Shown here in pieces: positions 7,676-32,014 of a DNA stretch of 64,000 nt. Numbering within the stretch: the stretch's first letter is position 1; each line of letters begins with the position of its first letter. Source of the DNA: an uncultured Chloroflexia bacterium (GTDB lineage Bacteria; Chloroflexota; Anaerolineae; Anaerolineales; UBA4823); NCBI GenBank assembly GCA_963792075.1, contig CAWBUW010000012.1, positions 397,854 through 461,853 on the forward strand, written 5' to 3'. Below the pieces are notes generated by a model. That model worked only from the letters and a program-made list of their open reading frames with translations, did not search any database and was not told where the DNA came from. A program made the position numbers and the translations under genes.

Positions 7676-7682
7676 GATGCCT

Positions 7683-8462: not shown

Positions 8463-8511
8463 ATCACACCTCACAAGTTGATCAAGATTTACTGATGAGT
8501 TTTTCCAAAAA

Positions 8512-10609: not shown

Positions 10610-10611
10610 TT

Positions 10612-11355: not shown

Positions 11356-12096
11356 TCATTCTCCTAAATAGGCTTCCATCACCAGGTTGTTATTTTGAAT
11401 GTCTTTTGGACACCCCTCGGCAAGGACAGACCCATAGGCCATACAGATGACAGGATCGCTAATTTTCATTACCAGGTCCATATTGTGTTCAACGATAAGA
11501 AATGTAATCCCTTTTTTATTTAATTCTAAAATCCGGTCGATAATACTTTCCAGCAGGGTGGGGTTTACCCCACCGGCAGGTTCATCAAGCATAATAAGTT
11601 TTGGTTCGGACATTAAAACGGATGCAAACTCCATAAGTTTTTTCTGCCCGTAAGATAAATTCTTCGCTTTTTCTTGTACCAGGTGAGCAATACCAACAAA
11701 AGAGAGCAGTTCCATCGCATGCTCAGTCTCCCGCCCGGACATACTGGAACGAAACATGTCAAAGAAACCATTTACCTGGGACTGGACGACCATGTTTTCA
11801 AGAACGGTCATTTCTTGCAGATCACGCGTGATCTGGAAAGTGCGGTTGATCCCTCTACGGGTAATTTCATGAGGTTGCAGTCCATTGATCTTTTTACCCT
11901 GGAAAAAAACTTCTCCGGAGTTTGGGGTCAGTAAACCAGTGACCAAATTGAAAACGGTCGTCTTTCCAGCGCCATTTGGACCGATGAGGCTTACGATGCG
12001 TCCTTCGTCGACAGAAAATGTACAGTTGCTTACGGCCTGGATTCCGCCGAAATGCTTATTTAGATTTTTTATTTCTAATAATGCCATTTTAGTCAC
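11356..12096 (-). CDS. Liv-type ABC transporter ATP-binding protein (LivG-like)
   Basis: Walker A GPNGAGKTT, signature LSYGQKK, Walker B IMLDEPA. Directly abuts the LivF-like gene. Confidence 0.9.
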   Translation of the reverse strand: MTKMALLEIKNLNKHFGGIQAVSNCTFSVDEGRIVSLIGPNGAGKTTVFNLVTGLLTPNSGEVFFQGKKINGLQPHEITRRGINRTFQITRDLQEMTVLENMVVQSQVNGFFDMFRSSMSGRETEHAMELLSFVGIAHLVQEKAKNLSYGQKKLMEFASVLMSEPKLIMLDEPAGGVNPTLLESIIDRILELNKKGITFLIVEHNMDLVMKISDPVICMAYGSVLAEGCPKDIQNNNLVMEAYLGE

Positions 12097-12156
12097 CGTG
12101 AACCAGATGATGATCTTTCAAAAAAATTCCCAGCCTGTCCAAAAAGGACCTTAGCA

Positions 12157-12246
12157 TGCTGTTCATCCCCCACAAGTAGGGGGTGAACAGCACAAAATCC
12201 TGTCTATAGCGTGTCTGTCCCCAAAAAAGTTTTCAGGGACAGACAC
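12157..12246. repeat. Structured intergenic element, copy A (two hairpins)
   Basis: Hairpin 1 pairs 12157-12169 with 12178-12190 (13 bp). The linker contains ACAAAATCC. Hairpin 2 pairs 12209-12220 with 12235-12246 (12 bp) around a CAAAAAAGTTTTCA loop. Alignable to 28119-28202. Confidence 0.7.
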
Positions 12247-12265
12247 GATTTGCATCAAAACTGAT

Positions 12266-13675
12266 TTACCATTCAGGTTTTGGATAAACGAGGGGTTTGA
12301 CACCCGGAAATGCATCAGTCGGGTAAACAAACTCAAGTTTTCCATCTTGCCATTGGGTCATGATGAAGGATTTGTTGATCGGAAGACCCCGTTCGTCCCA
12401 ATAGAAATCGCCGAGAATAGTTTTTACAGGATTGTCTTTCGTGCGGGCAGCGAGCCAATCACGCAAAACAGTGTTATCGGTCGATCCGGTTGCCCGGACT
12501 GCCTGTTCAATTCCCTGGCATAGAGCAAAGGGGATGGCTTCGTCTTCACCACCTTCAGCGTTATATTTGGCTTTGAAGGCATCCAGGAACATCTGATTGG
12601 TGAATTCCTTGCCATTCAACATGCCAGTGAAATTCGCCAGCGGATGCCATGAGGCTTGAATGGTAATTCCATTCGCTGCACTCCCCAGCGCTTCGCCGAA
12701 TTCCTTCTGTCCGCCCTGGCTCATGAAGAGACCTTTAGGATTGTAGCCGACCTGCTGTAAAGCGCGAACGAGGTTAATGGCTTCATCCGCTGAGGTAACA
12801 GGGGCAAAAACAAAATCCGCATTCGCGGCCTTCAATGAAGAGGCTAAGGTGGTCCAGTCAGAGAAGCCTTCCGGCCATTGCTGTTTGAAGACAACTTCGG
12901 CATTCAACTTCGAGAGTTCACCCGGAGCAAGGCTGACGGTCTTGTCCGTGCCATCATTGTTCTTGAATGTGACATCTTCGCCGAGCAGGCCGGCGATCAA
13001 AGCGTTGGCGTAGAAATCATCTGCCCACGCTAATGCAATGGTCTTGGGTTGTTGGTCGGCAGGAATCAAATCCTGGATCATCATTACAGGAGATGCGCCG
13101 ATATATTCAGCAGCATTCGGCTGGAAGTAAACCAGGTATTTGAAACCGCGCTCATATACACGCAATGCGGCAGCCGAGGGGATGGGGTGTAAGACTTTTG
13201 CCTGCTCAGTAACTGCTGAAGCGGGGAAAGTCAATTTACTGGAGAAGGTGCCGAAGATGAGATCAACCTTATCGACATTGATAAAGCGTTCCATTTGAGC
13301 AAGTGTAGTGTCGACATCAGATTGGTTGTCGCTGACGACTAATTCCACAGGCCGTCCGAGCAGACCGCCCGCTTCGTTAATCAGGTCAACACAAAGCTGG
13401 TAACCATCACGGTGTTTCGTACCGGTGATCGAGAACTCACCTGTCAATGGAAGGGATGTTCCGATTTTGATCGGAGCCGCTTCGGCGGCAACCGGAACTT
13501 CAGTAGCCGTTGGGGGTTCTGTTGCAGCAGGAGCTTCCGGTGCAGTAACTTCGGTTGCTGCAGGAGCTTCCGGCGCAGTGGCTTCAGTCGGCGCAGGTGT
13601 AGCTTGCGCACAGGCGCCCAGCACCAGAGCACCGATCATGAAGACCGCAATTAGCAAAGACAAACTCTTTTTCAT
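12266..13675 (-). CDS. Lipoprotein solute-binding protein, type I periplasmic-binding fold (LivK-like)
   Basis: 469-aa ORF. Signal peptide plus lipobox LVLGAC, then an Ala/Pro/Thr/Glu linker with 11-aa repeats, then a LivK-like domain. RBS AAGAGGAG. Confidence 0.85.
   Translation of the reverse strand: MKKSLSLLIAVFMIGALVLGACAQATPAPTEATAPEAPAATEVTAPEAPAATEPPTATEVPVAAEAAPIKIGTSLPLTGEFSITGTKHRDGYQLCVDLINEAGGLLGRPVELVVSDNQSDVDTTLAQMERFINVDKVDLIFGTFSSKLTFPASAVTEQAKVLHPIPSAAALRVYERGFKYLVYFQPNAAEYIGASPVMMIQDLIPADQQPKTIALAWADDFYANALIAGLLGEDVTFKNNDGTDKTVSLAPGELSKLNAEVVFKQQWPEGFSDWTTLASSLKAANADFVFAPVTSADEAINLVRALQQVGYNPKGLFMSQGGQKEFGEALGSAANGITIQASWHPLANFTGMLNGKEFTNQMFLDAFKAKYNAEGGEDEAIPFALCQGIEQAVRATGSTDNTVLRDWLAARTKDNPVKTILGDFYWDERGLPINKSFIMTQWQDGKLEFVYPTDAFPGVKPLVYPKPEW
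13524..13589 (-). repeat. 33-nt tandem duplication inside the SBP linker coding region
   Basis: Two adjacent 33-nt units (13524-13556 and 13557-13589) differ at a few positions and encode TE(A/V)TAPEAPAA repeats. Confidence 0.8.
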
Positions 13676-13813
13676 TATCTTTCTCCTCTTAGGTTGTTAC
13701 TTGAAATTTGATGGAACGATTGACTTTCGCTGACTTTTGGCTCGCTTTGGCTTTACCTCCTCAAAGATATCAAGTCTCGTTGGATTCAAAATAGCAGATA
13801 ATGGCTGCTGCGA

Positions 13814-14656
13814 TCAGCTTTGAGTTTCGAAATGTCCCATTTTCTGAGATATAACTTCAGCCGTCTCGATCAACTTTCTTCCATACTTCTCGATATCATT
13901 CTCGGGGAAACGTTGGATCGGGACAGAAATACTGATGGCTGCAATGGGATAGCCGAATCGATTTAAGATGGGGGCTCCTACACACCGACCGCCTACCTCA
14001 TTCTCCTGCTCATCGACTGAGTAGCCGCGGCGGTTGATGATGGCGATCTCATTCATAAATTTATCTCGATCGGTAATCGTAAAGGGGGTCACTGGATAGA
14101 AGTTGTAAGTTGCGAGCAGTTTCTGTCGTTCTGGTTCCGGAAGAAATGAAAAGATTGCCTTTCCCAGGGCTGTGCTGTGTAGCGATCCACGCCGGCCTAA
14201 TTCTGAGCGAATCCCTAAAGCGTGGTCTCCAAACATGCGCTCGATGTAGACCACCTCGTTTCCATCCTGGACCGCAAGATTAAGGCTTTCGCCGCACCAA
14301 TCTCTAAGCTCTTCGAGAAAAGGAGCAGCCACTTTACGAAGGTCCAAATGGTCCAGAAGAACGGCCGCTCGTTCGGCCAACTTTAAACCCAGCCTGTATT
14401 TTCGATTGGCTGGGTTCTGGTCTAAATAATTATTGACTTTTAGGGTATAGATCAACCCGGAGGCCGTGCCAACAGGTAGATCGAGAAGCTTCGCAATTTC
14501 TGCATTCCCGAGTTCTACATGTCCATTATTAAAAAGATTTAAAATATCAAGGGCACGTTGGACTGAGGCGATGATTTTTCGGGCTGTAGGTTTAGAGGTC
14601 GTTTCCAAGGGTGATTCGATAATTCCTTCCACCGGTAGATTCAAAATCGATAACAT
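13814..14656 (-). CDS. IclR family transcriptional regulator
   Basis: N-terminal wHTH (SVQRALDILNLF...AEIAKLLDLPVGTASGLIYTL) and a C-terminal IclR effector domain. The start is uncertain: ATG at 14656 or TTG at 14704. Confidence 0.8.
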   Translation of the reverse strand: MLSILNLPVEGIIESPLETTSKPTARKIIASVQRALDILNLFNNGHVELGNAEIAKLLDLPVGTASGLIYTLKVNNYLDQNPANRKYRLGLKLAERAAVLLDHLDLRKVAAPFLEELRDWCGESLNLAVQDGNEVVYIERMFGDHALGIRSELGRRGSLHSTALGKAIFSFLPEPERQKLLATYNFYPVTPFTITDRDKFMNEIAIINRRGYSVDEQENEVGGRCVGAPILNRFGYPIAAISISVPIQRFPENDIEKYGRKLIETAEVISQKMGHFETQS

Positions 14657-14733
14657 GCGACAATGTCGAATGGCATTTGGTATTATCGCATGTTTTTGCG
14701 CCAATTACAAGGGATGAATATGATGAAATTGGG

Positions 14734-14767
14734 GTATGCGGGGACGGCTTTTGCCGTCCCCGCATAC
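14734..14767 (-). terminator. Stem-loop downstream of the FAD-protein gene
   Basis: A 15-bp stem GTATGCGGGGACGGC / GCCGTCCCCGCATAC with a TTTT loop. An outer AATTGGGG...CCCCAATT pairing extends it. Only a weak T-tract follows. Confidence 0.5.
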
Positions 14768-14796
14768 TCCAAACCCCAATTTTGTTATTTTATGGA

Positions 14797-16767
14797 TTAT
14801 GAATAAATATCGCCGCTGCGGAATCTCGCCCAGGCGGTTTCAAACCAGGAGTCACTCTCCGGGATCGGCCGGCATAGCACCCATTGATGCTGGACATTTC
14901 CCTCCCCTACGCACGAAGTCTCAAGCACTTTCGTCCGATAAGATGCGTCTTCGATGGCAATCTTCCATGAGCTGTCCAGCATCTCGTGGACCTGACTCCC
15001 GTCAGGTTTTAAGACGATTGACGAGCCGCGACTTCCTACTCCGCTGGCTAGAGCGAACCTTATGGCATCCAGATAGACGACGTGAGCAAAGGCCAATTGC
15101 CTTACTCTGAACGCGTATTGCAAATGATTCTTGTTCTTGACTTTACAACCCGTCTGTAAAATTCGATGAACCTGATCCCATGCAGAAGGGATCTCGTCTT
15201 CCAAGGCAGGCAAACTGCGGATATGTGCTCCTGAACGAGACATCCTGGCTTGTATTTCCTGCATTTCTGCCTGCCATGATTTCTTTGCCGTTTGACATAA
15301 TTCCGCCCATTCCAAAACATGCTGCATGCGATCGGTTACGGCCAGGTTGACTTCAGCCTCTACCAGAGTCCAATTGGTGTAACGGTTGGCAATGTACTCC
15401 GCTGCCCGGAAACCGGCGACTTGTCCCGCGTTCAAAGAGGCTCCCCCTGGGCGGGTGACGCCATGAGACCCATTCACCTCACCGATTGGAAAAAGATGCT
15501 TGAGGTTCTTCAATTCGTACCAGATATTCCCGGCCAGGCCGCCGTTATTGTGTTGGGCGCAGACTGCCACTTCCAAAGGCTCATGGATCAGATCGATGTT
15601 GTGGTTTTTATACAGCTCCACAGCGCCGGGGTTCATATGCAAGAGGCGTTCGACCGGCGTGCTCTGTAAAGCGCCAGACCTCTCCAAATAAATGCGCGCT
15701 TCGTCCGGGAGAGATGAAAATGAAAAATCACGCGGGTTTGAACGGAAATCAAGGAATACCCGGCGGCCTTTTACCATTGTCTCGATATACACCAGGATGT
15801 CGACAATGGACGAGCCGCCAATTGCTTTCCGGGCGTCAAAAGGCCATTGATACCCTTTGAGGAAAATCATACCGTTCATCTCTGCGGTCGATTTGAAATA
15901 AGCGGGTAAAAATTCTTGCTCATCTGAAACGCCGTCCACATCCGTGCTGATCACCCTCGGGATGACCTGCATGTAGGTTCCCGAAACGTTCCAGCGGAAT
16001 TTTATCGAAGCCAATCCATATTGCGATTCGGGTAAATTCGCTGCCTGGGCGCCGGCCATCAGCCCTAATCCGATGGCGCCAGAATGGACAGCGGGATATA
16101 CGCTTGTTTTATATAATCCGCCAGGACCGCCCACCGCGAAGATCAGGTTCTCACAAACATAAGCTTCAAAATTGCCTTCTTTATTCACGGCGATGAGGCC
16201 AGCCACACGAGGTGAATCTCCTCCGACTGAAATCAACTCAACCGCATTCCGCCCTTCACGAATTTCAACGCCCAATGCTTTCACCTGATCGATCAGCTTC
16301 AAACACATTTCTTTCGATGTATACGGGCCGATCGAAGTAGCCCGCTGCCGTGGATCATGGTCGGTCTTATAGCCTACAAACTGGCCGTATGCATCGCGAG
16401 GAAACGGGACCCCCAGATTAACCAGGTTGATGAAGCTTCGAACGGACAAACTCAATTCGACCAGGGCGAGATCTCCGTGCATCGATCCGTTGGCGAAATA
16501 GGTCTCGGCCATGGCCCGGGGCAAATCGACTTCATCGCCGCACAACGATAATTTGTAATAAGTTTGTTTATCACTGCCCGTATTGATCGAGGTGCCCTGC
16601 GAAAGTCCTTCCGTTATGATCATCAGGTCTTTAACGCCATTGAGAAAAAGTTGAGCGGCTGCATTCAATCCGGCGGCTCCGCTGCCTAAAACCAACGTAT
16701 GCACGCGAAATACCGGAACCTTATATTGATTCTGGTTTACAGTTAAATTGAGATATGCATCAGTCAT
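14797..16767 (-). CDS. FAD-binding oxidoreductase, fumarate reductase/succinate dehydrogenase flavoprotein-like (FAD_binding_2)
   Basis: 656-aa ORF. N-terminal dinucleotide fold VLVLGSGAAGLNAA. Size and pattern resemble FrdA/SdhA/aspartate-oxidase-type flavoproteins. GAGGAG RBS. Substrate unknown. Confidence 0.7.
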   Translation of the reverse strand: MTDAYLNLTVNQNQYKVPVFRVHTLVLGSGAAGLNAAAQLFLNGVKDLMIITEGLSQGTSINTGSDKQTYYKLSLCGDEVDLPRAMAETYFANGSMHGDLALVELSLSVRSFINLVNLGVPFPRDAYGQFVGYKTDHDPRQRATSIGPYTSKEMCLKLIDQVKALGVEIREGRNAVELISVGGDSPRVAGLIAVNKEGNFEAYVCENLIFAVGGPGGLYKTSVYPAVHSGAIGLGLMAGAQAANLPESQYGLASIKFRWNVSGTYMQVIPRVISTDVDGVSDEQEFLPAYFKSTAEMNGMIFLKGYQWPFDARKAIGGSSIVDILVYIETMVKGRRVFLDFRSNPRDFSFSSLPDEARIYLERSGALQSTPVERLLHMNPGAVELYKNHNIDLIHEPLEVAVCAQHNNGGLAGNIWYELKNLKHLFPIGEVNGSHGVTRPGGASLNAGQVAGFRAAEYIANRYTNWTLVEAEVNLAVTDRMQHVLEWAELCQTAKKSWQAEMQEIQARMSRSGAHIRSLPALEDEIPSAWDQVHRILQTGCKVKNKNHLQYAFRVRQLAFAHVVYLDAIRFALASGVGSRGSSIVLKPDGSQVHEMLDSSWKIAIEDASYRTKVLETSCVGEGNVQHQWVLCRPIPESDSWFETAWARFRSGDIYS

Positions 16768-16861
16768 TTAAAGGCTCCTCGGAGAATTTTGTTTGTGTTT
16801 TTGGATTATATCATCCGGTTTAATCGCAAAAACAGTGCCTTTTGTCAGGCAGCACGTTTAA

Positions 16862-16882
16862 TAATATACAGTTAGTATATTA
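16862..16882. promoter_or_regulatory. Operator-like inverted repeat TAATATAC-N5-GTATATTA upstream of the GRE operon
   Basis: Perfect 8-bp arms sitting where the -35 region of the putative promoter would be. Confidence 0.4.
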
Positions 16883-16899
16883 TCTGCTCGGCTTTGAGA

Positions 16900-16905
16900 T
16901 ATAAT
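16900..16905 (+). promoter_or_regulatory. Candidate -10 box TATAAT, 6 nt upstream of the activase ATG (leaderless configuration)
   Basis: An exact TATAAT at 16900-16905 with the ATG at 16912 and no SD between them. Confidence 0.4.
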
Positions 16906-16911
16906 ACGGGC

Positions 16912-17817
16912 ATGACCATCCCCTCCGGCCTGATCTTCGACCTCAAGCGCTATGCCATCAACGATGGGCCGGGCATCCGCACGACAGTGTTCCTCAAAGG
17001 CTGCCCACTGCGCTGCGCCTGGTGCCACAACCCGGAGAGCCAGTCGCCCCAGCCGGAGCTGATGTTCCGATCCAACCGCTGCATCGCCTGCGGCGCGTGC
17101 GAACAGGCCTGCAAATACGACGCCATCCACATGGAAATGGCTGACCAGGTGATCCGCGATCCGGAAAAGTGCATGAACTGTGGCGACTGCGCCGCAGCCT
17201 GCTACAGCGAGGCGCGCCAATGGGTCGGGCAGACCGTCACGCCCGCGCAACTCCTGGCGGAGATCGAACGTGACCAGGCGTTCTATGACGCTTCGGGCGG
17301 TGGGGTGACCTTTTCGGGCGGTGAGCCGCTGCTGCAGCCCGCTTTCCTGGCCGAAACGCTGCGCCTGTGCAAAGCGCACGAGATCCATACCAGCGTGGAC
17401 ACCTGCGGCTACGCCTCCTGGGCGAAGCTGGAAGCGCTGCACGGGCTGGTGGACCTGTACCTGTACGACCTGAAAGTAATGGACGACGCCCGCCATCGCC
17501 AGCACACCGGCGTCTCGAACCGGGTAATCCTGGAAAATATTCACAGGCTGGCCCAAGGCGGCGCGCACCTGGTCATCCGCATCCCGCTGGTAGCGGGGTT
17601 CAACGATGACGCCGGCAATCTGGAGCAGACTGCCGTTTTCCTGGCAAAGCTGCCCGGCATCGAACGCGTCGACCTGGCGCCGTATCACGAGATCGGCAGC
17701 GCCAAGTACAGCGCGCTGGAACGCAGCCAGCCACAGTTCAGCCCCCCCGGCCCGGACACGCTCGCCCAGGCGATCGAGATTTTCGCCCGCTACGGGCTGA
17801 GCGCCCAACAGATCTAA
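16912..17817 (+). CDS. Glycyl-radical enzyme activating enzyme (radical SAM, with two extra ferredoxin-like clusters)
   Basis: Radical-SAM [10 protein letters not shown] (CxxxCxxC) plus [11 protein letters not shown] and [20 protein letters not shown]-binding motif. ATG at 16912; the ORF-track start at 16894 is a TTG. Confidence 0.9.
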
Positions 17818-17824
17818 CCCTTTT

Positions 17825-17854
17825 GTTCGTTGGGTGCAGATGCGCCCAACGAAC
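17825..17854 (+). other. Intercistronic hairpin between the activase and GRE genes
   Basis: A 13-bp stem (one G-U pair in plus sense) with loop AGAT. It lies between the activase stop (17817) and the GRE RBS (~17865). Confidence 0.6.
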
Positions 17855-17875
17855 GAAGGAAAGAAGAGGAAGATT

Positions 17876-20245
17876 ATGTCCCTGACACCCCGTGTGCAGC
17901 AGCTCCGCCAGCAAAGCCTGGCAGCCGTCGAGAGCTTGTCCAGCGAGCGCGCTGAATTGATGACCGCCTTTTACCAGGAGCAAGGCAAGCGCCTGGTCTC
18001 AGTGCCGGTGCAACGCGCTCTGTCCTTCCAGTATTTGCTGGAGCACAAGACGATCTGCATCAACGCGGGCGAGCTGATCGTGGGCGAGAAAGGCCCGGCC
18101 CCTAAGGCGTCCCCCACCTATCCCGAGCTGTGCTGCCACAGCCTGTCAGACCTGGACATCCTCGACCAGCGCGAGAAGACCAGCTTTAAAGTCAGCCCGC
18201 AGACGCGCCAGGCCTACAAGAAGACAGTGATCCCGTTTTGGGAAGGCCGCTCGATACGTGACCTGATCTTCCAGGAGATGACCCCTGCCTGGATCAACGC
18301 CTACGAAGCGGGCATTTTCACCGAGTTCATGGAACAGCGCGCCCCCGGCCACACGGTACTGGATGACAAGATCTACCGCCTGGGCATGCTGGACTTCCAG
18401 GCGCAGATCACGGAGCGCCTGGCGAGCCTGAATTTCCTGCACGACCCACTGGCTTACGAACGCCAGGAAGAGCTGAAGGGCATGCACATCGCCGCGGGAG
18501 CATTGGTCCGCTTCGCCGAACGGCACGCCGAAAAAGCCCGCCAGATGGCAGCCCAGGAGGCGGACCCCCAGCGCCGAGCCGAGCTGGAGCAGGTCGCCGC
18601 AGTCTGCACACAGGTGCCGGCGCACGCCCCGCGCACATTCTGGGAAGCGCTGCAGTATTACTGGTTCGTACACCTGGGCGTGACCATCGAGCTGAACACC
18701 TGGGACGCCTTTTGCCCCGGCAGGCTGGACCAGCACCTGCTGCCCTTCTACCAACAGGGCCTGGCTGAAGGCAGCCTGACGCGTGAGCAGGCCGAAGAGC
18801 TGCTGCAGTGCTTCTGGATCAAGTTCAATAACCAGCCTGCGCCGCCCAAGGTGGGGGTGACGGCTGCCGAGAGCGGCACCTACACCGATTTCGCCCAGAT
18901 CAACGTGGGCGGCGTGCGCCCGGATGGCTCGGATGGGGTCAACGAGGTATCCTACCTGCTGCTGGACGTGATCGAAGAGATGCGCCTGCTGCAGCCCTCC
19001 TCCTCGATCCAGGTAAGCAAAAAAAACCCGGACCGCTTCGTCAAGCGGGCGGCGCGCATCATCCGCACCGGCTTTGGCCAACCATCCGTTTTCAACGCCG
19101 ACCTGATCGTACAGGAGCTGGTGCGCATGGGCAAGAGCGTGGTGGATGCGCGCTGCGGCGGATCGAGCGGCTGTGTGGAAGTGGGAGCCTTCGGCAAAGA
19201 GGCCTATAACCTGACCGGCTACTTCAACCTACCCAAGGTCCTGGAACTGACGCTGCACAACGGCTACGATCTGCGCAGAGAGAAACAGCTTGGCCCACAG
19301 ACGGGCGACCCGCTTACATTCCAGAGCTTCGACGAGCTGTTCGCCGCCTTCGAGGCGCAGCTCAACTACTTTATGGACGTCAAAGTGCAGGGCAACAACG
19401 TCATCGAGCGCCTGTACGCCCGCTACATGCCCTGCCCCTTCCTCTCCCTGTTGATCGATGACTGCATTGCCCGCGGCAAAGACTACCACGATGGCGGCGC
19501 ACGTTACAACACCAGCTACGTACAGGGAGTGGGCATTGGCACGATCACCGACTCGCTCTCCGCTTTGAAACACCACGTCTACGACCAGGGCGTGCTGCCT
19601 ATGGCGGAAATGTTGAAAGCGCTGGATACCGATTTCGCCTCCGCGGAACGCACGCGCCAGATGCTGCTCAACCGCACGCCGCGCTACGGCAACGACGATG
19701 ACTACGCCGACCTGCTGATGCAGCGCATCTTCGAGGCCTATTACCAGGCCGTCGAGGGGCGGCCTAACACCAAGGGCGGTGAATACCATATCAACCTGCT
19801 GCCCACAACCGTACACGTGTATTTTGGCGCGGTGACCCAGGCCACGCCGGACGGGCGCCACGCCGGGCTGCCGCTCTCCGAGGGTATCTCACCGGTGCAG
19901 GGCGCAGACCGCTGCGGTCCCACCGCGGCGATCCGTTCGGCAGCCAAGATGGACCACGTACGCACAGGCGGCACGCTGCTCAACCAGAAGTTCACCCCGC
20001 AGCTCCTGCAGGATGAGACCGGGTTGGACCGCCTGGTGCAGCTTGTACGCACTTATTTCAACCTGGATGGGCACCATATCCAGTTCAACGTGGTGGATGC
20101 AGCCACGCTGCGCGCGGCGCAGGCCAACCCGGAGCAATACCGCAGCCTGATCGTGCGCGTGGCCGGCTACAGCGACTACTTCTGCGACCTGGACCAAACT
20201 CTGCAGGACGAGATCATCGCCCGCACCGAGCACACATCTTTCTAA
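17876..20245 (+). CDS. Glycyl-radical enzyme, PFL2/dehydratase-eliminase clade, substrate unknown
   Basis: C-terminal glycine-radical loop LIVRVAGYSDYF. Thiyl loop GGSSGCVEVG (Cys, then Glu two residues later, not the PFL Cys-Cys). The ATG at 17876 is preceded by GAGGAAG and gives 789 aa. Confidence 0.9.
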   Translation: MSLTPRVQQLRQQSLAAVESLSSERAELMTAFYQEQGKRLVSVPVQRALSFQYLLEHKTICINAGELIVGEKGPAPKASPTYPELCCHSLSDLDILDQREKTSFKVSPQTRQAYKKTVIPFWEGRSIRDLIFQEMTPAWINAYEAGIFTEFMEQRAPGHTVLDDKIYRLGMLDFQAQITERLASLNFLHDPLAYERQEELKGMHIAAGALVRFAERHAEKARQMAAQEADPQRRAELEQVAAVCTQVPAHAPRTFWEALQYYWFVHLGVTIELNTWDAFCPGRLDQHLLPFYQQGLAEGSLTREQAEELLQCFWIKFNNQPAPPKVGVTAAESGTYTDFAQINVGGVRPDGSDGVNEVSYLLLDVIEEMRLLQPSSSIQVSKKNPDRFVKRAARIIRTGFGQPSVFNADLIVQELVRMGKSVVDARCGGSSGCVEVGAFGKEAYNLTGYFNLPKVLELTLHNGYDLRREKQLGPQTGDPLTFQSFDELFAAFEAQLNYFMDVKVQGNNVIERLYARYMPCPFLSLLIDDCIARGKDYHDGGARYNTSYVQGVGIGTITDSLSALKHHVYDQGVLPMAEMLKALDTDFASAERTRQMLLNRTPRYGNDDDYADLLMQRIFEAYYQAVEGRPNTKGGEYHINLLPTTVHVYFGAVTQATPDGRHAGLPLSEGISPVQGADRCGPTAAIRSAAKMDHVRTGGTLLNQKFTPQLLQDETGLDRLVQLVRTYFNLDGHHIQFNVVDAATLRAAQANPEQYRSLIVRVAGYSDYFCDLDQTLQDEIIARTEHTSF

Positions 20246-20251
20246 AAAAGA

Positions 20252-21670
20252 TCAGAATTGTGAGTGCAGGCCCTGGCGTTCGACCTCTTCATCGAACTGC
20301 TTCTGGCGAGCGCGGGCGCGCAGGCCGGCGCGCTGTAACTGCCAGAGGATAAAACGCACGCGGCTGGACATGGCCTTGGCGATATTCCATAATAGCAGAC
20401 TGCCCAATTCGGGGTCATCCTCACGCAGCGCCAGCAAGCGCTGGCGGTCCAGGGCCAGCACGATAGCCCCCTCCGCGCCGGTGATCAGGTCCGCGGTGCG
20501 CACACCTTCATCCAACATGCTCAGCTCACCAGTCATCTCTCCGGCCTTCAACTGGGCTGCCTTCTGCGGATGCCGGGGCAATTCGCCAGGACTTTCCGGA
20601 TCGCTCCACACTTCCACCGTGCCATCCCGGATAATAAACATCTCCTGCCGGTCCCGAGCGGGATCGACCAGGTTGGTATGCGGGGGGAAAGTATACTGGC
20701 GCATCTGCGCGGCCAGGCGAGAGCGCTGCGCCAGGCTCATACCATTTCCAAGCGAGGAATGCGCCAGAAAGTGGGCGGTCTCTTCGACGCGCGCCAGCTC
20801 CTGGTCAGACACCGGGGTGTACAGCGCATCGCTGAGCAGCGGTAGGCCCAGGTAAGATGACACCAGCCGCCGCGTGGCGTCCGGGCTTTCAAAGTGCGGC
20901 CAGTGACCAGCCTTCGGCAGCAGGTGCAGGTCCGCCTTGGGCCATTCATCTGCCACCACACCGGTGTCGCTCAGGGGGACCGTATTATCCTCCGCACCCC
21001 AAATTGCCAGGGTGGGCGTCTGGATCATGCTGAGCTTACCGCTCAGGTTATTTTCGCGCATGGCGAAGAAACACTCAGCCCGCACGCGCCCCTCGCCGGG
21101 ACGGCGAGCGTCCGCCCGCAGCCGGACGTAATCCGCCTGGGTGATCCCCGAGCGGTCCGCAAACGAAACTGGGCGCATCAGCCGGTCCGTCACCCCCATG
21201 AATGCTCGCTCCATCGCCGTGACCAGGAACTGGCCCAGGCCAAAACGCTCCATCATGGTCACCGGTGAAACCATCAGGTTGATCGTGGTCGAAAGGCGGC
21301 CGGTGATAGTTGGGCTGACCAGCACCATACGCTCGACCAGCACCGGGTAAGCGCGCGCCAGCGCAATCCCGATCATGCCGCCCATCGAATGCCCGACGTA
21401 TACCACCGGTCTATCACTGACCTTTTCGATCAAGCCGGCAAGCAACTCGACATATTTGTTAATCGTCGTACGCTCTTTGAACGGCGGTGAGCTGCCGTAT
21501 CCCGGCAGGTCTACCGAGATGCAGTGAAAACGCTGGCTCAGCAGCGTCGCAAGCGGCGTCATGGCATACGAGGAGCTTGACCAACCATGCACCAGGATCG
21601 CTTCCTGGCGGGCAGGCGAACCAAATTCGACGGTATGTATATCTTGGTCTTGGATCGTGTAGACCGGCAT
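20252..21670 (-). CDS. Alpha/beta-hydrolase fused to a C-terminal cyclic-nucleotide-binding (CAP_ED) domain
   Basis: 472-aa ORF. N-terminal hydrolase with nucleophile elbow GHSMGG. C-terminal cNMP-binding pattern FIIRDGTVEV...GELSMLDEGVRTADLIT. Confidence 0.8.
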   Translation of the reverse strand: MPVYTIQDQDIHTVEFGSPARQEAILVHGWSSSSYAMTPLATLLSQRFHCISVDLPGYGSSPPFKERTTINKYVELLAGLIEKVSDRPVVYVGHSMGGMIGIALARAYPVLVERMVLVSPTITGRLSTTINLMVSPVTMMERFGLGQFLVTAMERAFMGVTDRLMRPVSFADRSGITQADYVRLRADARRPGEGRVRAECFFAMRENNLSGKLSMIQTPTLAIWGAEDNTVPLSDTGVVADEWPKADLHLLPKAGHWPHFESPDATRRLVSSYLGLPLLSDALYTPVSDQELARVEETAHFLAHSSLGNGMSLAQRSRLAAQMRQYTFPPHTNLVDPARDRQEMFIIRDGTVEVWSDPESPGELPRHPQKAAQLKAGEMTGELSMLDEGVRTADLITGAEGAIVLALDRQRLLALREDDPELGSLLLWNIAKAMSSRVRFILWQLQRAGLRARARQKQFDEEVERQGLHSQF

Positions 21671-21674
21671 ATTT

Positions 21675-21685
21675 TTCCAGGCTTA
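21675..21685 (-). promoter_or_regulatory. 11-mer TAAGCCTGGAA just upstream of a start codon (also at 61454-61464)
   Basis: The minus-strand sequence TAAGCCTGGAA ends 4 nt before the ATG at 21670. The identical 11-mer ends 5 nt before the ATG at 61448. Confidence 0.35.
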
Positions 21686-21722
21686 AGGAACGGGTCGATT
21701 CTATTGTTTGGATAGTTTGCAA

Positions 21723-21742
21723 CATCTCAATAAAAGGGGGAA
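21723..21742. repeat. 18-nt motif CATCTCAATAAAAGGGGG shared with 52181-52198
   Basis: 18 nt are identical at the two loci. Each lies 55-70 nt upstream of a minus-strand start codon and next to a G/C hairpin. Confidence 0.5.
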
Positions 21743-21906
21743 CACCCCCCGACTTTTTGAAATGTTACGATAGTTTTCAATTATAGATCAGGGTGCAATA
21801 ATTGTGTTGTTTTATTTTTTCTATGCTAAAATCATACTGCGGTAGGATCAAGGGGGGCATTTATTGGTTTTTTACCTGTAAGCTTTGGGTGGATTTCCCC
21901 GTTCAT

Positions 21907-21926
21907 AAGTGGCGCTGCCACTTTTT
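21907..21926 (+). terminator. Terminator-like hairpin plus T-run inside the 5' leader of the SBP gene (possible attenuator)
   Basis: AAGTGGC-GCT-GCCACTT followed by TTTT, about 25 nt upstream of the AAGGAG RBS. A candidate extended -10 (TGCTAAAAT) lies at 21824-21832. Confidence 0.4.
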
Positions 21927-21953
21927 AAACTTTCTTTTCAAGGAGAATGAAAA

Positions 21954-23036
21954 ATGAAGTTCAACCGCTATCTGTTCGCCCTGCTGGTTGCGTTGGTTCT
22001 GGTCCTGAGCGCCTGCCAATCAGCCACCCCAGCCGCCCCAGCCGCCCCGGCTGCCACGGCTGCTCCAACCGCCGAGGTGATCCAGGATAAAGAGCTCAAC
22101 GTGCTCTGCACACCTTCTGAAGAATGGTGCCAGGGCGTGAAACAGGAATTTGAGGCCAAGTATGGCATCACGGTAAACTACGTGCGCATGTCAGCCGGTG
22201 AGGCGCTGGCCCGTCTGCAAGCGGAAAAAGACAACCCCCAGTTCGATGTCTGGTGGGGTGGCCCGATTGACACCTACGTGTCTGCCAAGGAAGCGGGGGT
22301 GCTCGAGGCCTACGATTCGCCCAACCTCAAAAACTTGCTCAACCAGACCCTGTACAAGGATGCCGATAAATATTGGGCTGGCATTTACGTAGGCACACTG
22401 GGATTCGCCACCAACAAAGACTGGCTGGCGGCGCATCCGGACGCCAAAGCCCCCAAATCCTGGGAGGATTTGCTCAAACCTGAGTTCACCGGGCAGGTGA
22501 TGGTGGCTCACCCCTCTACCTCCGGCACCTCCTACACCGCAATGGCAACCATCTTGCAGATCTACGGCGAGGAAGCCGGTTGGGAATACCTGAAGAAGTA
22601 CGCCGGGCAAATCTCGCAATACACCAAGAGCGGCGCCGCGCCGGCTAAGTTCGTCGGCCAGGGTGAGGGAGCCGTGGCGATCGTCTTCTCACATGACATC
22701 GTCAACGAGATCGAGAATAACCAGATGCCGCTGGTGCTGACCTTCCCCAAAGAAGGCACCGGCTATGAAATTGGCGGCATGGCGATCGTCAAAGGCGCCA
22801 AGCATCCCCAGGCAGCCCGCCTGTGGTACGATTGGGCGCTGACCGCCGAAGCCCAGGCGCTGGGCCCGAAATATAAAGCCTACCAGGCTCCTACGGTGGG
22901 GGGCGTCGAGCTCTCGCACCCAGAGCTGCTACAAGTCAAGCTGATCGATTACGACTTCCAGTGGGCCGGTAGTAATAAGAAAGCCTTCGTAGAACGCTAC
23001 ACCAACGAACTGGCTGCCGCCGAAAACCTGAAGTAA
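21954..23036 (+). CDS. Lipoprotein solute-binding protein, Fe3+/thiamine/polyamine-type (SBP family 1)
   Basis: 360-aa ORF. Signal peptide plus lipobox LVLSAC, an Ala/Pro linker, and an FbpA/PotD-like pattern. AAGGAG RBS. Confidence 0.8.
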   Translation: MKFNRYLFALLVALVLVLSACQSATPAAPAAPAATAAPTAEVIQDKELNVLCTPSEEWCQGVKQEFEAKYGITVNYVRMSAGEALARLQAEKDNPQFDVWWGGPIDTYVSAKEAGVLEAYDSPNLKNLLNQTLYKDADKYWAGIYVGTLGFATNKDWLAAHPDAKAPKSWEDLLKPEFTGQVMVAHPSTSGTSYTAMATILQIYGEEAGWEYLKKYAGQISQYTKSGAAPAKFVGQGEGAVAIVFSHDIVNEIENNQMPLVLTFPKEGTGYEIGGMAIVKGAKHPQAARLWYDWALTAEAQALGPKYKAYQAPTVGGVELSHPELLQVKLIDYDFQWAGSNKKAFVERYTNELAAAENLK

Positions 23037-23060
23037 ATCCATAAGCCTATTATGTTGTCA

Positions 23061-23092
23061 TGCTGCCCCAAAAGGAACCTTTTGGGGCAGCA
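23061..23092 (+). other. Intercistronic hairpin after the SBP gene
   Basis: A 13-14-bp perfect stem TGCTGCCCCAAAAG / CTTTTGGGGCAGCA with no U-tract, between the SBP stop (23036) and the permease RBS. Confidence 0.6.
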
Positions 23093-23113
23093 TGCCCCCA
23101 CCGAAAGAGGTTT

Positions 23114-25387
23114 ATGAACTTATCCAAGCGCCCTCCACTTTTTGCCAACCTGGCGCGCCGGTTTCGCGAATTTGAGCTGCTCTCGCGTGATCCAACCCTG
23201 GCCGCCAGCCTTCTCCTGAGCACTTTCTTCCTGGTAATTTTCGTGGTACTGCCCATCTACCAGACCACAATTACGGGCTTCTTCGACAAGAGCGGCGCGT
23301 TGAATTTCGAGTATTTCCGGCGCTTTTTTGACGCCTATTTCGGGCCGCTGCAACGCAAGATTTTCCTGGATACGCTCACGATGGGTGTGCTGACGGCTAC
23401 TTTTGGCACGCTGTTGGGGTTCATTTTTGCTTTTGCCATGGTGCGTTGTAATCTGCCCGGCCGCGGCCTGGTACATTTACTGGCGCTGGTGCCCACCGTC
23501 TCCCCTCCCTTCGCCATCGCGCTGGCTACGATCCTGCTTGCCGGGCGCAGCGGGCTGATCACCAAGAGATTGTTAGGCATCCAGTTCCAACCTGGCATGA
23601 ACGATGTGTACGGCATGGATGGGCTGGTCTTCGTGCAGGTGATTTCTTATTTCTCCGTGTCTTATTTGATCCTGCGCGCCATGCTGGAGAGGCTGGATGC
23701 GTCCATGGAAGAAGCTGCTGCCAGCCTGGGCGCAGGCCAGTTGACCATCTTTCGCACGGTAACGCTGCCGCTGCTCATCCCGGGCATTGCCGGGGCCTTC
23801 CTGCTCCTGTTCGTCGAATCGCTGGCCGACCTGGGCAACCCGTTGTTTATTTCGGGCAACGTGACCGTGCTTGCGGCGCAAATCTTCCTGGCAATTGTTG
23901 GCGAGTTCGATTACCAGAAAGCCGCGGCGCTGTCTGTGGTGCTCTTACTGCCCACGCTGACAATCTTCCTGGTCCAGCGCTATTATGTCAACCGCCGCTC
24001 GTATATTTCGGTCACCGGGAAGCCCACCGGCGGGCGCATCATCGAAAAAGACCCCCTGATCCGCTGGACGGCTAACTTGATCACCTACCTGGCCTGCCTG
24101 GTGATCATCGTTTTGTACCTGACGGTCTTCTACGGCTCATTCAGCACGGCCTGGGGGGTTAATTTCTCACCCACACTGCGCTGGTGGCAGCAAGCATTGG
24201 AGCGCGGCGTGGAAGCCATCCTGGATACCACTTTCCTGAGCGCACTGGCCACGCCTGCGGCGGTACTGCTGGGCATGGTGATCGCGTTCCTGGTGGTGCG
24301 CAAGAAGTTCAGCGGCAAAGAAGCGCTGGACTTTACCTCCAACCTGGGCGGCGCGGTGCCCGGAACGATCCTGGGGATGGGCTTTATCCTGATGTTTAAC
24401 ACTCCAAAACTGGCGCTGGTGGCGATCACTTACGCCATCCTGGCGCTTTTTTTCGTCTGGCTCACCGGAGAACGCACCTGGCCGCGATTGGTAATCCTGC
24501 TCCTGGGCACGCTGGCCGGGATCGGCCTGAGCCTGCTCGACCGCTGGCTGGGGCTGCCAGTATTACTTTATATCCTGGGCGGGCTGTACCTGTTCGCGGC
24601 GCTGCTGGCTTTCTTCGGGGCGCGTCACAAAGCGCTGGCAGCATTCCTGCTAACTGCCGGGCTGTACCTGTGCAGCTACAACCTGGCAGAGTACCTGGCC
24701 ACACCCATCGCTGCGTTCAGCCGCAGCATTCCGCGTGGTTTCTGGAGCAATGCCGTTTTCCAGCTTGCCGATTATATTAAGGTCTTTTTTCAGCTCCCCC
24801 CTGCCCTATCCGGCGTGGCTTTTCTACTGGCCTCCAGCCTGCTGCTCAGCCGGATGCGCGGGAAACTGAGCCTGCTGCTGAACACAATGCTTGGAGCGCT
24901 GACGCTGGCGCTTTCCTGCGCGCTGATCTTCACCGATAAACCGCTGGCTCTGGTGGGAACGCCTTTTATCATCTTGGCGGCTTACATCGTACGCAGCCTG
25001 CCCGCCTCGGTGCGCGCTGGCGTCGCTGCGCTGCACCAGATCGACCCCTCCATCGAAGAAGCTTCCAACATCCTGGGGGCGGATGCCCAGGTCACTTTCC
25101 GCAAAGTCACCCTACCGCTGATCACCCCCTCGCTGCTGGCCGGCCTGATCTTCAGCTTCACCCGCCACATGACCAGCCTTTCGGCGATCATCTTCCTGAT
25201 CACGGCACGCTGGCGCATTGTCACTGCCTCGATCCTCAGCGAATGGGAACAGGGCGGGGTGAGTATCGCCGCAGCGTATTCTACCGTGATCATCGTGATC
25301 GTCTTATTGGCGATCGGCCTGATCTATGCGCTAACCCGGCGCGCGCTGGGCAGCGATACTGGCATTGACCTCAGCCTGGGATCGTGA
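23114..25387 (+). CDS. Fused double-domain ABC permease (FbpB/ThiP-like) with a large hydrophobic insertion
   Basis: Two EAA-loop regions (EEAAASLGAGQLTIFRTVTLPLLIP and EEASNILGADAQVTFRKVTLPLITP). The ATG at 23114 follows AAGAGG. The upstream extension overlaps a hairpin. Confidence 0.8.
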   Translation: MNLSKRPPLFANLARRFREFELLSRDPTLAASLLLSTFFLVIFVVLPIYQTTITGFFDKSGALNFEYFRRFFDAYFGPLQRKIFLDTLTMGVLTATFGTLLGFIFAFAMVRCNLPGRGLVHLLALVPTVSPPFAIALATILLAGRSGLITKRLLGIQFQPGMNDVYGMDGLVFVQVISYFSVSYLILRAMLERLDASMEEAAASLGAGQLTIFRTVTLPLLIPGIAGAFLLLFVESLADLGNPLFISGNVTVLAAQIFLAIVGEFDYQKAAALSVVLLLPTLTIFLVQRYYVNRRSYISVTGKPTGGRIIEKDPLIRWTANLITYLACLVIIVLYLTVFYGSFSTAWGVNFSPTLRWWQQALERGVEAILDTTFLSALATPAAVLLGMVIAFLVVRKKFSGKEALDFTSNLGGAVPGTILGMGFILMFNTPKLALVAITYAILALFFVWLTGERTWPRLVILLLGTLAGIGLSLLDRWLGLPVLLYILGGLYLFAALLAFFGARHKALAAFLLTAGLYLCSYNLAEYLATPIAAFSRSIPRGFWSNAVFQLADYIKVFFQLPPALSGVAFLLASSLLLSRMRGKLSLLLNTMLGALTLALSCALIFTDKPLALVGTPFIILAAYIVRSLPASVRAGVAALHQIDPSIEEASNILGADAQVTFRKVTLPLITPSLLAGLIFSFTRHMTSLSAIIFLITARWRIVTASILSEWEQGGVSIAAAYSTVIIVIVLLAIGLIYALTRRALGSDTGIDLSLGS

Positions 25388-26511
25388 ACTTTTCTGACCC
25401 TGCGGGCCTGGCTGAACCATCAGAATCGGATAAAACTATGTACCTGAACCTGAACGACATCGTCAAAATCTTTCCTGCTCGCGGCGGCAACCGTGAAGTG
25501 ACTGCGGTCAACCACGTCTCGCTGGATATCGAAAAAGGCGAGCTGGTTACCCTGCTGGGACCATCGGGCTGCGGTAAAACTACCACACTGCGCATGATCG
25601 CCGGTTTCGAAATCCCCACTGCGGGGGATATTCTATTGGATGGGCGCTCGATCAACATGCTTCCGCCTCACCAGCGCGAGATGTCTATGGTTTTTCAGAG
25701 CTACGCCATTTTTCCCCACTTGAATGTGCTTGAAAATATTGCCTACGGGCTGAATGTCAAACATACGCCGAAAGATGAAGTCGCCCGGCGCGTGGCCAAA
25801 GTGATGGACCTGGTGCAGCTTGGCGGATACGAGCAGCGCGCGCCTAACCAGCTTTCCGGAGGCCAGCAGCAGCGCGTGGCGCTGGCGCGCGCCCTGGTGA
25901 TGCGCCCCAAGGTGCTTCTGATGGATGAACCGCTCTCCAATCTGGACGCCAAGCTGCGCGAACAGATGCGCACCGAGATCCGCCGCATCCAAAAAAGCAT
26001 CGGCATTACCAGTGTGTACGTGACCCACGACCAGATTGAAGCCATGACGCTGTCTGACCGCATCGTGGTAATGAACCAGGGCGTGATCGAACAGGTCGGC
26101 CCACCCCCACAAATCTACCGCCGCCCGGCGACGCGTTTTGTGGCCGATTTCATCGGCCGGGCGAATTTTATCGAAGGCCGCGTGCTCGAACAGAAAAACG
26201 GCTCGCTCAGCGTAGAAGCCTTCGGCAAGGCGCTGAACGTGATCAAGCCAGAAGTTTCGCTGCTACCCGGCAGCCCGGTGACCCTGGTGGTCCGCCCGGA
26301 AGCGTTCTGCATCGGGCAGTCCGGCAGCCCCTGGCAAGGCGTTGTGCGCCGCGCCACATACCTGGGCAATGCGATTGATTATGAGGTAGAGATCCACGGG
26401 CAGGTGCTGGTGATCCAGGAGACCAATCCCCTTCAAACCCAGATACTGGCAGAAGGCGAACAGATAGGGATCGCTATCCTGGAAGATTGCGCCCACGTGC
26501 TACCGAGGTGA
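25384..26511 (+). CDS. ABC transporter ATP-binding protein (FbpC/PotA-like) with C-terminal regulatory domain
   Basis: Walker A GPSGCGKTT, signature LSGGQQQRVALARAL, Walker B LLMDEP. The start is either the GTG at 25384 overlapping the permease stop or the ATG at 25438. Confidence 0.85.
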   Translation: MNFSDPAGLAEPSESDKTMYLNLNDIVKIFPARGGNREVTAVNHVSLDIEKGELVTLLGPSGCGKTTTLRMIAGFEIPTAGDILLDGRSINMLPPHQREMSMVFQSYAIFPHLNVLENIAYGLNVKHTPKDEVARRVAKVMDLVQLGGYEQRAPNQLSGGQQQRVALARALVMRPKVLLMDEPLSNLDAKLREQMRTEIRRIQKSIGITSVYVTHDQIEAMTLSDRIVVMNQGVIEQVGPPPQIYRRPATRFVADFIGRANFIEGRVLEQKNGSLSVEAFGKALNVIKPEVSLLPGSPVTLVVRPEAFCIGQSGSPWQGVVRRATYLGNAIDYEVEIHGQVLVIQETNPLQTQILAEGEQIGIAILEDCAHVLPR

Positions 26512-27581: not shown

Positions 27582-27603
27582 CTAATTACGAAAAACGAGC
27601 CCC

Positions 27604-28080: not shown

Positions 28081-28118
28081 CTCACACCTCTTTCCTAGAA
28101 ATAAAAGAACAATATTAT

Positions 28119-28202
28119 GGTGTGCACCCCTCACGAGTGGGGGGTGCACACCACAAAAACCTTTTTCTTTAGGCGCTGTCCCTAAAAATACTTTTCAGGA
28201 CA
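28119..28202. repeat. Structured intergenic element, copy B
   Basis: Hairpin 1 pairs 28119-28130 with 28141-28152 (12 bp perfect). The linker contains ACAAAAACC. It is followed by TGTCCCTAAAAATACTTTTCAGGACA. Same order and orientation as copy A. Confidence 0.7.
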
Positions 28203-28226
28203 CCCCATGAGGTCTACAGGGTTGGT

Positions 28227-28514: not shown

Positions 28515-28602
28515 TTTCTTTTCCTTTTTTGTCTACACGATCATCGACTGTTGGCCAGTCCTCAAGACGACCGTTGAGATATTTTCCAGGATCAACTGAG
28601 GG

Positions 28603-32004: not shown

Positions 32005-32014
32005 GGGGTACCCC

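Follow-up and report, generated by a model that had tools for sequence, protein, structure and literature searches.

A glycyl radical enzyme and activase pair of an Anaerolineae-type Chloroflexota probably encodes trans-4-hydroxy-L-proline dehydratase (HypD)

The gene pair under study, an activase and a glycyl radical enzyme (GRE) in a 64-kb stretch of Anaerolineae-type Chloroflexota DNA (the window; Table 1), very probably encodes trans-4-hydroxy-L-proline dehydratase (HypD), an enzyme already characterised, and its activase. Family models, comparison with a crystallised homolog and the residues predicted to line the pocket all point this way. The pair is a self-contained unit without conserved neighbours. 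For HypD, a locus lacking pathway neighbours is the norm, and the finding is an ordinary one, of a known enzyme in a setting typical for it. It would place a further Anaerolineae genome among the many anaerobes able to use hydroxyproline, for which plant cell-wall glycoproteins, collagen and necromass are sources, and has little importance beyond correct annotation. For GREs, missing genomic context is not equivalent to function unknown, as pocket residues and family models can reveal the substrate.

Table 1 Positions of the activase–hypD pair and other features in the 64-kb window.
Feature	Position	Strand	Details
Liv-type transporter	8512-13675		Divergent from the pair, two genes between
9-bp perfect inverted repeat, ATAATATAC-N5-GTATATTAT (candidate operator)	16861-16883		29 nt upstream of activase ATG
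Activase (radical SAM GRE-activating enzyme)	ATG 16912 to 17817; alternative TTG 16894	+	301 aa from ATG 16912
Activase CX3CX2C radical-SAM motif, CPLRCAWC	17002-17025	+	aa 31-38
Activase ferredoxin-like CX2CX2CX3C motifs (n=2), auxiliary [4Fe-4S] clusters	17080-17112, 17170-17202	+	From motif positions and Pfam Fer4/Fer4_7
Predicted HypD (GRE)	ATG 17876 to 20245; alternative GTG 17834	+	789 aa from ATG 17876
GRE Cys loop, GCVE	19169-19180	+	aa 432-435; thiyl-radical Cys433 and Glu435 correspond to C. difficile HypD Cys434 and Glu436
GRE glycyl radical loop, RVAGYS	20156-20173	+	aa 761-766; Gly764 corresponds to C. difficile HypD Gly765
Convergent gene	20252-21670	-	Stop codon 6 nt past GRE stop
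ABC transporter system	21954-26511		Nearby
GntR/FCD regulator, corrinoid protein, two non-Pyl MttB homologues, DUF1638 operon	30630-35746		10 kb downstream
Second Liv-type transporter	43147-48770		

Both ORFs are intact and full length, and all of the motifs on which the original prediction relied (CPLRCAWC and two Cys4 motifs in the activase; GCVE and RVAGYS in a GRE of 789 aa) were located in the sequence, as was the convergent gene just past the GRE stop. Pfam analysis identified Radical_SAM and Fer4 domains in the activase, while matches of the GRE to PFL-like (771 bits) and Gly_radical (125 bits) indicate that it is not a chance ORF. The GRE start codon is preceded by GGAAAGAAGAGGAAG; the GRE product is identical to a public protein (P0001) and the 301-aa activase product also has an exact counterpart in public data. 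The reading of GCVE as a mark of 1,2-eliminating GREs held: on its motifs the pair classifies as a 1,2-eliminase-type GRE with a CXE loop and an activase bearing a ferredoxin domain.

Among GRE family models, the GRE passed only the NCBI equivalog for HypD (NF043068; 1295.7 bits, cutoff 1100), with ORF residues 20-801 aligned to profile positions 3-783 of 784. Scores for other GRE equivalogs were far under their cutoffs (HpsG, 549/1000; HpfG, 504/1000; CutC, 476/1050; indoleacetate decarboxylase, 392/1100; 4-hydroxyphenylacetate decarboxylase, 343/1150; PFL, 122/994), and the PFL2/glycerol dehydratase subfamily model TIGR01774 was also missed (661.5 bits, cutoff 678.2). The top phmmer matches in PDB were HypD structures 6vxc/6vxe (1086 bits, over residues 19-801 of the 803-aa ORF, equivalent to 5-787 of the 789-aa protein), followed by glycerol dehydratase (573 bits), HpzG (8iof; 445 bits), HpyG (8id1; 442 bits) and HplG (7vua; 404 bits). 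A resemblance to glycerol dehydratase or HypD had been proposed from length, and these scores bear it out for HypD but not for glycerol dehydratase. In sequence alignment, ORF residues 19-801 are colinear with residues 27-808 of the crystallised C. difficile HypD (CdHypD) chain, with 452 of 782 residues identical (58%) and one 1-residue gap; at this level of identity the specificity may have shifted relative to CdHypD. The name trans-4-hydroxy-L-proline dehydratase is already carried by several of the nearest homologues in databases, at 76-78% identity, as assigned by NCBI (P0047 and P0091 from Anaerolineae; P0107 from Chloroflexota) or, in three more cases, by JGI.

Fifteen active-site residues of CdHypD have been defined by structure and mutagenesis (F152, R156, H160, W277, D278, K326, S334, D339, F340, C434, V435, E436, Y450, T645 and G765; Backman et al. 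2020, PMC7077986), and all 15 are retained in the GRE of the window. These include His160, Asp278, Asp339 and Glu436, each essential by mutagenesis (PMC7077986) and represented by H, D, D and E here and in 72/72 orthologues, and all of the substrate-binding positions, with roles in carboxylate binding (Ser334, Tyr450, Thr645), ring packing (Phe340, Phe152, Trp277) and charge (Arg156, Lys326), as assigned in CdHypD (PMC7077986). The position of Ser334 is occupied by Phe in glycerol dehydratase (GD), propanediol dehydratase (PD), CutC and IslA, and conservation of D278 and D339 sets HypD apart from other eliminases (PMC7077986); the GRE has Ser at the former position. The complete set of 15 was also retained in all 72 full-length orthologues from 80 fetched loci. 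The residue test is discriminating, as a GRE paralogue from these loci that is not HypD (L040, 5266-7659) lacks 12 of the 15 residues. The original prediction had considered the substrate not inferable from context and perhaps new, and had named close grouping with a GRE of established function that shares all substrate-binding residues, for example a bona fide HypD, as the outcome that would speak against this. That outcome is what the HypD equivalog, the 58% identity and the 15/15 residues give, and the proposal of a new substrate falls.

The following steps of activation, binding and catalysis have been shown or proposed for C. difficile HypD and are transferred here on the basis of residue-for-residue conservation. 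The [4Fe-4S] cluster of the activase CX3CX2C motif would reductively cleave S-adenosylmethionine, and the resulting 5'-deoxyadenosyl radical would take a hydrogen from Gly764 in the RVAGYS loop, leaving a stable glycyl radical. On binding of trans-4-hydroxy-L-proline, with its carboxylate held by Ser333, Tyr449 and Thr644 and its ring packed by Phe339, Phe151 and Trp276, the radical would move to Cys433 in the GCVE loop. The Cys433 thiyl radical would then abstract a substrate hydrogen at C5, the hydroxyl on C4 would be lost as water with Asp277, His159, Asp338 and Glu435 in acid/base roles, and the hydrogen would be given back to C4 to yield (S)-delta1-pyrroline-5-carboxylate (P5C). P5C would presumably enter general metabolism, reduced to proline by a housekeeping ProC or oxidised to glutamate, with ProC or the glutamate-forming enzyme encoded elsewhere in the genome.

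The enzyme resembles C. difficile HypD (PDB 6VXC/6VXE; Levin 2017, Backman 2020) in its length (789 aa in both), colinearity over the whole chain, Gly loop and CXE Cys loop, and in being encoded beside its own activase, which carries two ferredoxin-like motifs. It differs in its host, an Anaerolineae-type Chloroflexota rather than Clostridium, and in the lack of an adjacent proC and/or prd operon, as found at Clostridiales-type HypD loci, anywhere in the 64 kb, so that a Stickland role is not implied. HypD itself is not defined by an adjacent proC or prd. The activase also differs in falling under the NCBI HypD-activase cutoff: its best equivalog is NF043069 (T4HPD_activ_SAM), at 359.6 bits against a cutoff of 425, while the GRE-activase subfamily model TIGR02494 (PFLE_PFLC) was passed (352.2 bits, cutoff 174.35). 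We infer that the 301-aa protein is the HypD activase from its adjacency to hypD, as an activase lies directly upstream of hypD in at least 57 of about 74 orthologous loci.

The comparison of orthologue neighbourhoods suggested in the original prediction was carried out by clustering the ORFs of 80 orthologous loci (blastp) and scanning the 150 nearest neighbours with Pfam. The activase is the sole conserved neighbour of hypD across these loci and the remaining neighbours are essentially random, with 186 Pfam families identified among the 150 proteins, each in no more than five; neither a proC cluster nor a conserved transporter was found near hypD. The solo pair is therefore not unusual, contrary to the emphasis originally placed on its orphan context, in agreement with the literature, which describes HypD as widespread and in most cases encoded apart from downstream genes. 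Occasional neighbours in relatives would fit hydroxyproline or peptide metabolism, with four proteins of the Pro_racemase family and three to four Xaa-Pro peptidases (Peptidase_M24/AMP_N).

As had been claimed for the genes adjacent to the pair, no usual companion gene was identified in the window. A Pfam scan of the 64 kb, covering all called ORFs of at least 90 aa plus three shorter or alternative-frame ORFs, and using the activase instead of a longer antisense ORF (16858-17808), found no microcompartment shell protein, aldehyde dehydrogenase, 1,3-propanediol dehydrogenase, P5C reductase or other P5C-consuming enzyme, proline reductase, sulfite reductase or obvious hydroxyproline transporter. 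The statement that a dedicated transporter is lacking needs qualification: an ABC system and a Liv-type system do lie nearby, but neither is conserved beside orthologues in the 80 loci. The Liv-type system closest to the pair was considered as a hydroxyproline importer because such a transporter lies directly upstream of the activase-hypD region in three Firmicutes loci (L040, L044 and L077). This idea was dropped in view of the low identity (22-46%), divergent orientation, two intervening genes and second such transporter in the window, and because synteny with the closest relative (87% aa identity) does not extend to the left block of the window. On the other side, neither an S58 peptidase, nor the ABC transporter, nor an alpha/beta hydrolase that carries a cNMP-binding domain was accepted as a HypD partner, because the 87%-identical relative lacks this 7.3-kb hypD-carD block and the other loci contain nothing homologous to it.

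A HypD-clade enzyme with a real substrate other than free trans-4-hydroxy-L-proline is very unlikely. Candidate substrates would be a hydroxyproline stereoisomer, or hydroxyproline derived from demethylated N-methyl-hydroxyprolines or betonicine, with the corrinoid/MttB operon in the window as the possible source. GREs for other hydroxyproline derivatives do exist, as HplG, HpyG and HpzG are CXE-loop enzymes that act on hydroxyproline-type rings by hydrogen abstraction beside the ring heteroatom (PMC13450708), identity to the characterised enzyme is just 58%, and with the hypD-carD block missing from the closest relative MttB, if present past the end of that contig, would be about 3 kb away. 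However, HplG, HpyG and HpzG are far more distant than HypD in the PDB search, and the window enzyme has the HypD pocket, including D278 and D339 (via water), which contact the unsubstituted ring nitrogen. In addition, an MttB homologue is found within 10 kb in 0/80 orthologous loci (blastp E<1e-10), MTTB is not among the commonest neighbour Pfam families, and carD, an RRM-protein gene and DUF885, on the opposite strand, separate hypD from the MttB operon. An undescribed anaerobic route, in which this operon would demethylate betonicine or N-methyl-hydroxyproline to supply hydroxyproline to HypD as the final enzyme, or drift to another hydroxyproline-like substrate in spite of the conserved pocket, seems equally improbable. 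B12-independent glycerol or 1,2-propanediol dehydratases have the CXE loop and a length of about 790 aa in common with the GRE, and the glycerol dehydratase (PDB 1R8W/1R9D; about 787 aa) is also a 1,2-eliminase, with 1r8w the second-best PDB match. This identity is nevertheless scarcely credible, given a score about half that of HypD, Ser in place of GD Phe333 and PD Phe338, the presence of the HypD-specific Asp278 and Asp339, the missed subfamily model and the lack of shell, aldehyde dehydrogenase, 1,3-propanediol dehydrogenase or other diol-pathway genes in the window.

It is also most improbable that the pair is a horizontally acquired cassette, now silent or decaying and without a physiological role, although several features of its surroundings could be read in this way. 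The compositional break noted to one side of the pair was confirmed (G+C 0.497 for 1-16860 and 0.623 for 16861-20245; GC3 about 0.5 to the left and about 0.7-0.8 to the right), both flanks of the pair are lineage-specific indels when compared with the closest relative, GC3 of the pair (0.82) exceeds the local average (about 0.70), and HypD orthologues (64-79% identity) are scattered over many phyla, suggesting transfer. However, the block of odd composition is the left 16.9 kb and not the activase-hypD pair, neither ORF is disrupted and every catalytic residue is retained. In the 87%-identical relative, synteny moreover covers both the pair and the carD-RRM-DUF885 backbone downstream of it (about 82% nucleotide identity), indicating that the pair has been kept through speciation.

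Rfam and tRNA scans of the window gave no match, indicating that there is no riboswitch upstream of the pair and no tRNA at the G+C break. The inverted repeat upstream of the activase (Table 1), followed closely by a TATAAT box (16899-16904), coincides with this break and with the left edge of homology to the closest relative, and is a candidate operator. The repeat core (TATACAGTTAGTATA) is conserved at the same position in L081, and L010 and L017 have similar sites upstream of their activase genes, giving repeat-like sites in 3 of 67 loci, compared with about 0.4 expected.

The orfs of the glycyl radical enzyme (GRE) and its activase, with their motifs (CPLRCAWC, two Cys4, GCVE and RVAGYS), lie where the original prediction placed them. 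The shorter of two possible GRE products (789 aa), whose ATG is preceded by a purine-rich Shine-Dalgarno-like stretch, is 100% identical to a public protein (P0001) encoded on a 2.75-Mb contig. The only curated NCBIfam model passed is the equivalog for trans-4-hydroxy-L-proline dehydratase (HypD; NF043068, 1295.7 bits, cutoff 1100, aligned end-to-end); the GRE falls far under the cutoffs for HpsG, HpfG, CutC, the indoleacetate and hydroxyphenylacetate decarboxylases and PFL, and just short of that of the generic PFL2/glycerol-dehydratase subfamily model. Among all PDB sequences the top match is C. difficile HypD (6vxc/6vxe; 1086 bits, residues 19–801 of the longer orf; 452/782 identities, 58%, one single-residue gap), followed by glycerol dehydratase (573 bits), while other hydroxyproline-acting GREs (HpzG, 8iof; HpyG, 8id1; HplG, 7vua) give 404–445 bits, a ranking that argues against the new substrate originally considered possible.

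The residues binding Hyp (trans-4-hydroxy-L-proline) and those involved in catalysis were defined by a substrate-bound structure and mutagenesis of HypD (Backman et al. 2020, PMC7077986). They are Cys434-Val435-Glu436 and Gly765, an acid/base network (His160, Asp278, Asp339), carboxylate ligands (Ser334, Tyr450, Thr645), packing residues (Phe340, Phe152, Trp277) and charge-balancing residues (Arg156, Lys326); Asp278 and Asp339 are kept in HypD and not in other eliminases, and Ser334 lies at the site of a Phe in GD, PD, CutC and IslA (PMC7077986). Mapped via the alignment (add 13 to the C. difficile HypD number for the 803-aa orf, subtract 1 for the 789-aa protein), 15/15 active-site residues are identical in the GRE which, with the equivalog match, is the outcome that the prediction had itself named as refuting a new substrate. 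Of the 73 full-length GREs that the fetched orthologous loci encode, 72 also keep all 15 (MAFFT alignment). The lone exception, a 34%-identical paralogue (5266–7659 in locus L040), fails at 12/15 positions, so the 15-residue test discriminates. Judged by sequence, the pair is thus an already known enzyme, HypD, with its activase, in surroundings usual for HypD.

The reaction steps have been shown experimentally for C. difficile HypD only, and family membership and conserved residues suggest the same course here (PMC7077986, PMC13450708). Reductive SAM cleavage by the activase would generate a radical on Gly764, which would move to Cys433, and the thiyl radical would take H from C5 of Hyp. The C4 hydroxyl would then depart with Asp277 as acid, positioned by His159 and Glu435, and return of H to C4 would give (S)-delta1-pyrroline-5-carboxylate (P5C), which may be reduced by housekeeping ProC or oxidized to glutamate.

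The 301-aa activase product has a verbatim copy in public data, and family models (NCBIfam) align from approximately residue 12–14 of the longer, TTG-initiated form. It carries Radical_SAM and Fer4 domains (Pfam) and passes the GRE-activase subfamily model; the HypD-activase equivalog is its best equivalog match, yet under cutoff (359.6 vs 425). Antisense orfs overlapping activase (16858–17808, −, 316 aa) and hypD (18146–19081, −, 311 aa) are high-GC artefacts; a longest-ORF gene caller takes the antisense orf and misses the real activase. A perfect palindrome, ATAATATAC-N5-GTATATTAT (16861–16883), lies just 5′ of both a TATAAT box and the ATG of the activase, at a spacing that suggests a very short leader or leaderless mRNA. 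Its core is kept in L081 (921–943), the contig of the closest relative, and similar TATAC-N5-GTATA sites lie 5′ of the activase in two other loci (L010, 8894; L017, 4974), making it a possible operator for some regulator.

Table Coordinates of features in and around the hypD region.
Feature	Position	Strand	Remarks
Flavoprotein (FrdA/NadB-like), IclR regulator, OYE-type oxidoreductase, SDR, Zn-ADH	1–16860		left block
Liv-type ABC transporter, PfkB kinase, KDPG/KHG aldolase, CoA-transferase, enoyl-CoA hydratase, FAA hydrolase	1–16860		left block
Activase	16894 (TTG) or 16912 (ATG) to 17817	+	301 aa from ATG
CPLRCAWC radical-SAM motif	17002–17025	+	activase
Two CX2CX2CX3C motifs	17080–17112, 17170–17202	+	activase
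GRE (hypD)	17834 (GTG) or 17876 (ATG) to 20245	+	803 or 789 aa
GCVE Cys loop	19169–19180	+	GRE
RVAGYS glycyl radical loop	20156–20173	+	GRE
Alpha/beta hydrolase fused to cNMP-binding-like domain	20252–21670	−	7.3-kb block; convergent, ends 6 nt past GRE stop
ABC system: SBP, 775-aa double permease, ATPase (PhnS2/U2/T2-like)	21954–26511		7.3-kb block
S58 (DmpA-type) peptidase	26487–27581		7.3-kb block
GntR/FCD regulator	30630–31343	+	operon 30630–35746
Corrinoid (B12-binding) protein	31360–32004	+	operon 30630–35746
Two uninterrupted (non-pyrrolysine) MttB-superfamily methyltransferases	31931–33466, 33444–34931	+	
DUF1638	34928–35746	+	operon 30630–35746

The closest genome-collection relatives of the GRE (72–79% aa identity) are nearly all from Anaerolineae or Chloroflexota MAGs, with orthologues at 64–70% in Gemmatimonadota, Ignavibacteriota, Aminicenantes, Acidobacteriota, Bathyarchaeota, Calditrichota and Bacillota. 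Several 76–78% matches in a 5.8-billion-protein collection are already named ‘trans-4-hydroxy-L-proline dehydratase’ (NCBI, Anaerolineae and Chloroflexota; JGI, others). No assay of an Anaerolineae HypD was apparent in the literature, although the targeted search was uninformative.

The pair had been described as an orphan, and a Pfam scan of all called orfs ≥90 aa in the window, plus three shorter or alternative-frame orfs, likewise found no microcompartment shell protein, aldehyde dehydrogenase, P5C reductase, proline reductase or sulfite reductase. This absence of adjoining partners is not unusual: when all orfs of the 80 loci were clustered, the sole conserved neighbour was the activase directly upstream (at least 57 of ~74 loci). 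The 150 nearest other neighbours matched 186 Pfam families, the commonest being GntR/FCD regulators (5), Pro_racemase (4), a family that includes hydroxyproline epimerases, and M24 Xaa-Pro peptidases (3–4); the few that recur are consistent with metabolism of hydroxyproline or peptides. In two more close relatives the surroundings are entirely unrelated (copper oxidase and CopCD genes in one, restriction-modification and glycosyltransferase genes in the other). With the same picture of HypD genomic context in Huang et al. 2018 (PMC6219649), these random neighbours make ‘orphan’ status the norm for HypD rather than an anomaly; adjacency to downstream genes characterizes Clostridiales (Stickland). 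L040 (Desulfosporosinus sp. FKB), L044 and L077 have a Liv-type ABC transporter directly upstream of their activase-hypD region; in L040 the paralogous GRE, with a non-HypD pocket, lies between transporter and hypD, possibly a hydroxyproline-related locus with two GREs.

Both predicted boundaries of the pair, a compositional break on the left and a convergent gene on the right, were confirmed. G+C rises from 0.497 (1–16860) to 0.623 (16861–20245) and GC3 from ~0.5 to ~0.7–0.8; across 16861–64000 G+C is ~0.59–0.62 and GC3 ~0.7, so the pair shares the composition of the 47 kb on its right. L081, home of the closest relative, P0002 (87% aa identity), has the order activase-HypD-CarD-RRM protein-DUF885, and its BLASTN alignment covers window positions 16861–20244 at 82% identity, then jumps to 27621–30478. 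Left-side homology thus stops exactly at the G+C break, and the 7.3-kb block 20246–27603 is an indel relative to the L081 lineage; a k-mer check (8–14 nt) reported no flanking direct repeats. hypD and carD are convergent in L081, parted only by a strong hairpin (~4310–4390). The left block looks like a sugar-acid/acyl-CoA island unrelated to the pair and probably arose by horizontal acquisition or rearrangement; neither tRNA nor integrase was seen at the junction (16861). Pathway partners are absent from both flanks.

The corrinoid/MttB operon, 10 kb from hypD, might speculatively be tied to N-methyl-hydroxyproline or betonicine catabolism, but across the 80 orthologous loci MttB homologues are absent within 10 kb of hypD. 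At 427 and 382 bits, both methyltransferases fall under the 525-bit cutoff for trimethylamine methyltransferase, so they probably act on a different methylated amine or on a betaine. Elsewhere in the window, a Peripla_BP_6 binding protein appears split into N- and C-terminal orfs (47336–47860/47847–48770, −) and a BPD_transp_2 permease into 89-aa and 194-aa pieces (9733–10317/10340–10609, −), which could reflect a frameshift, a pseudogene or a sequencing error.
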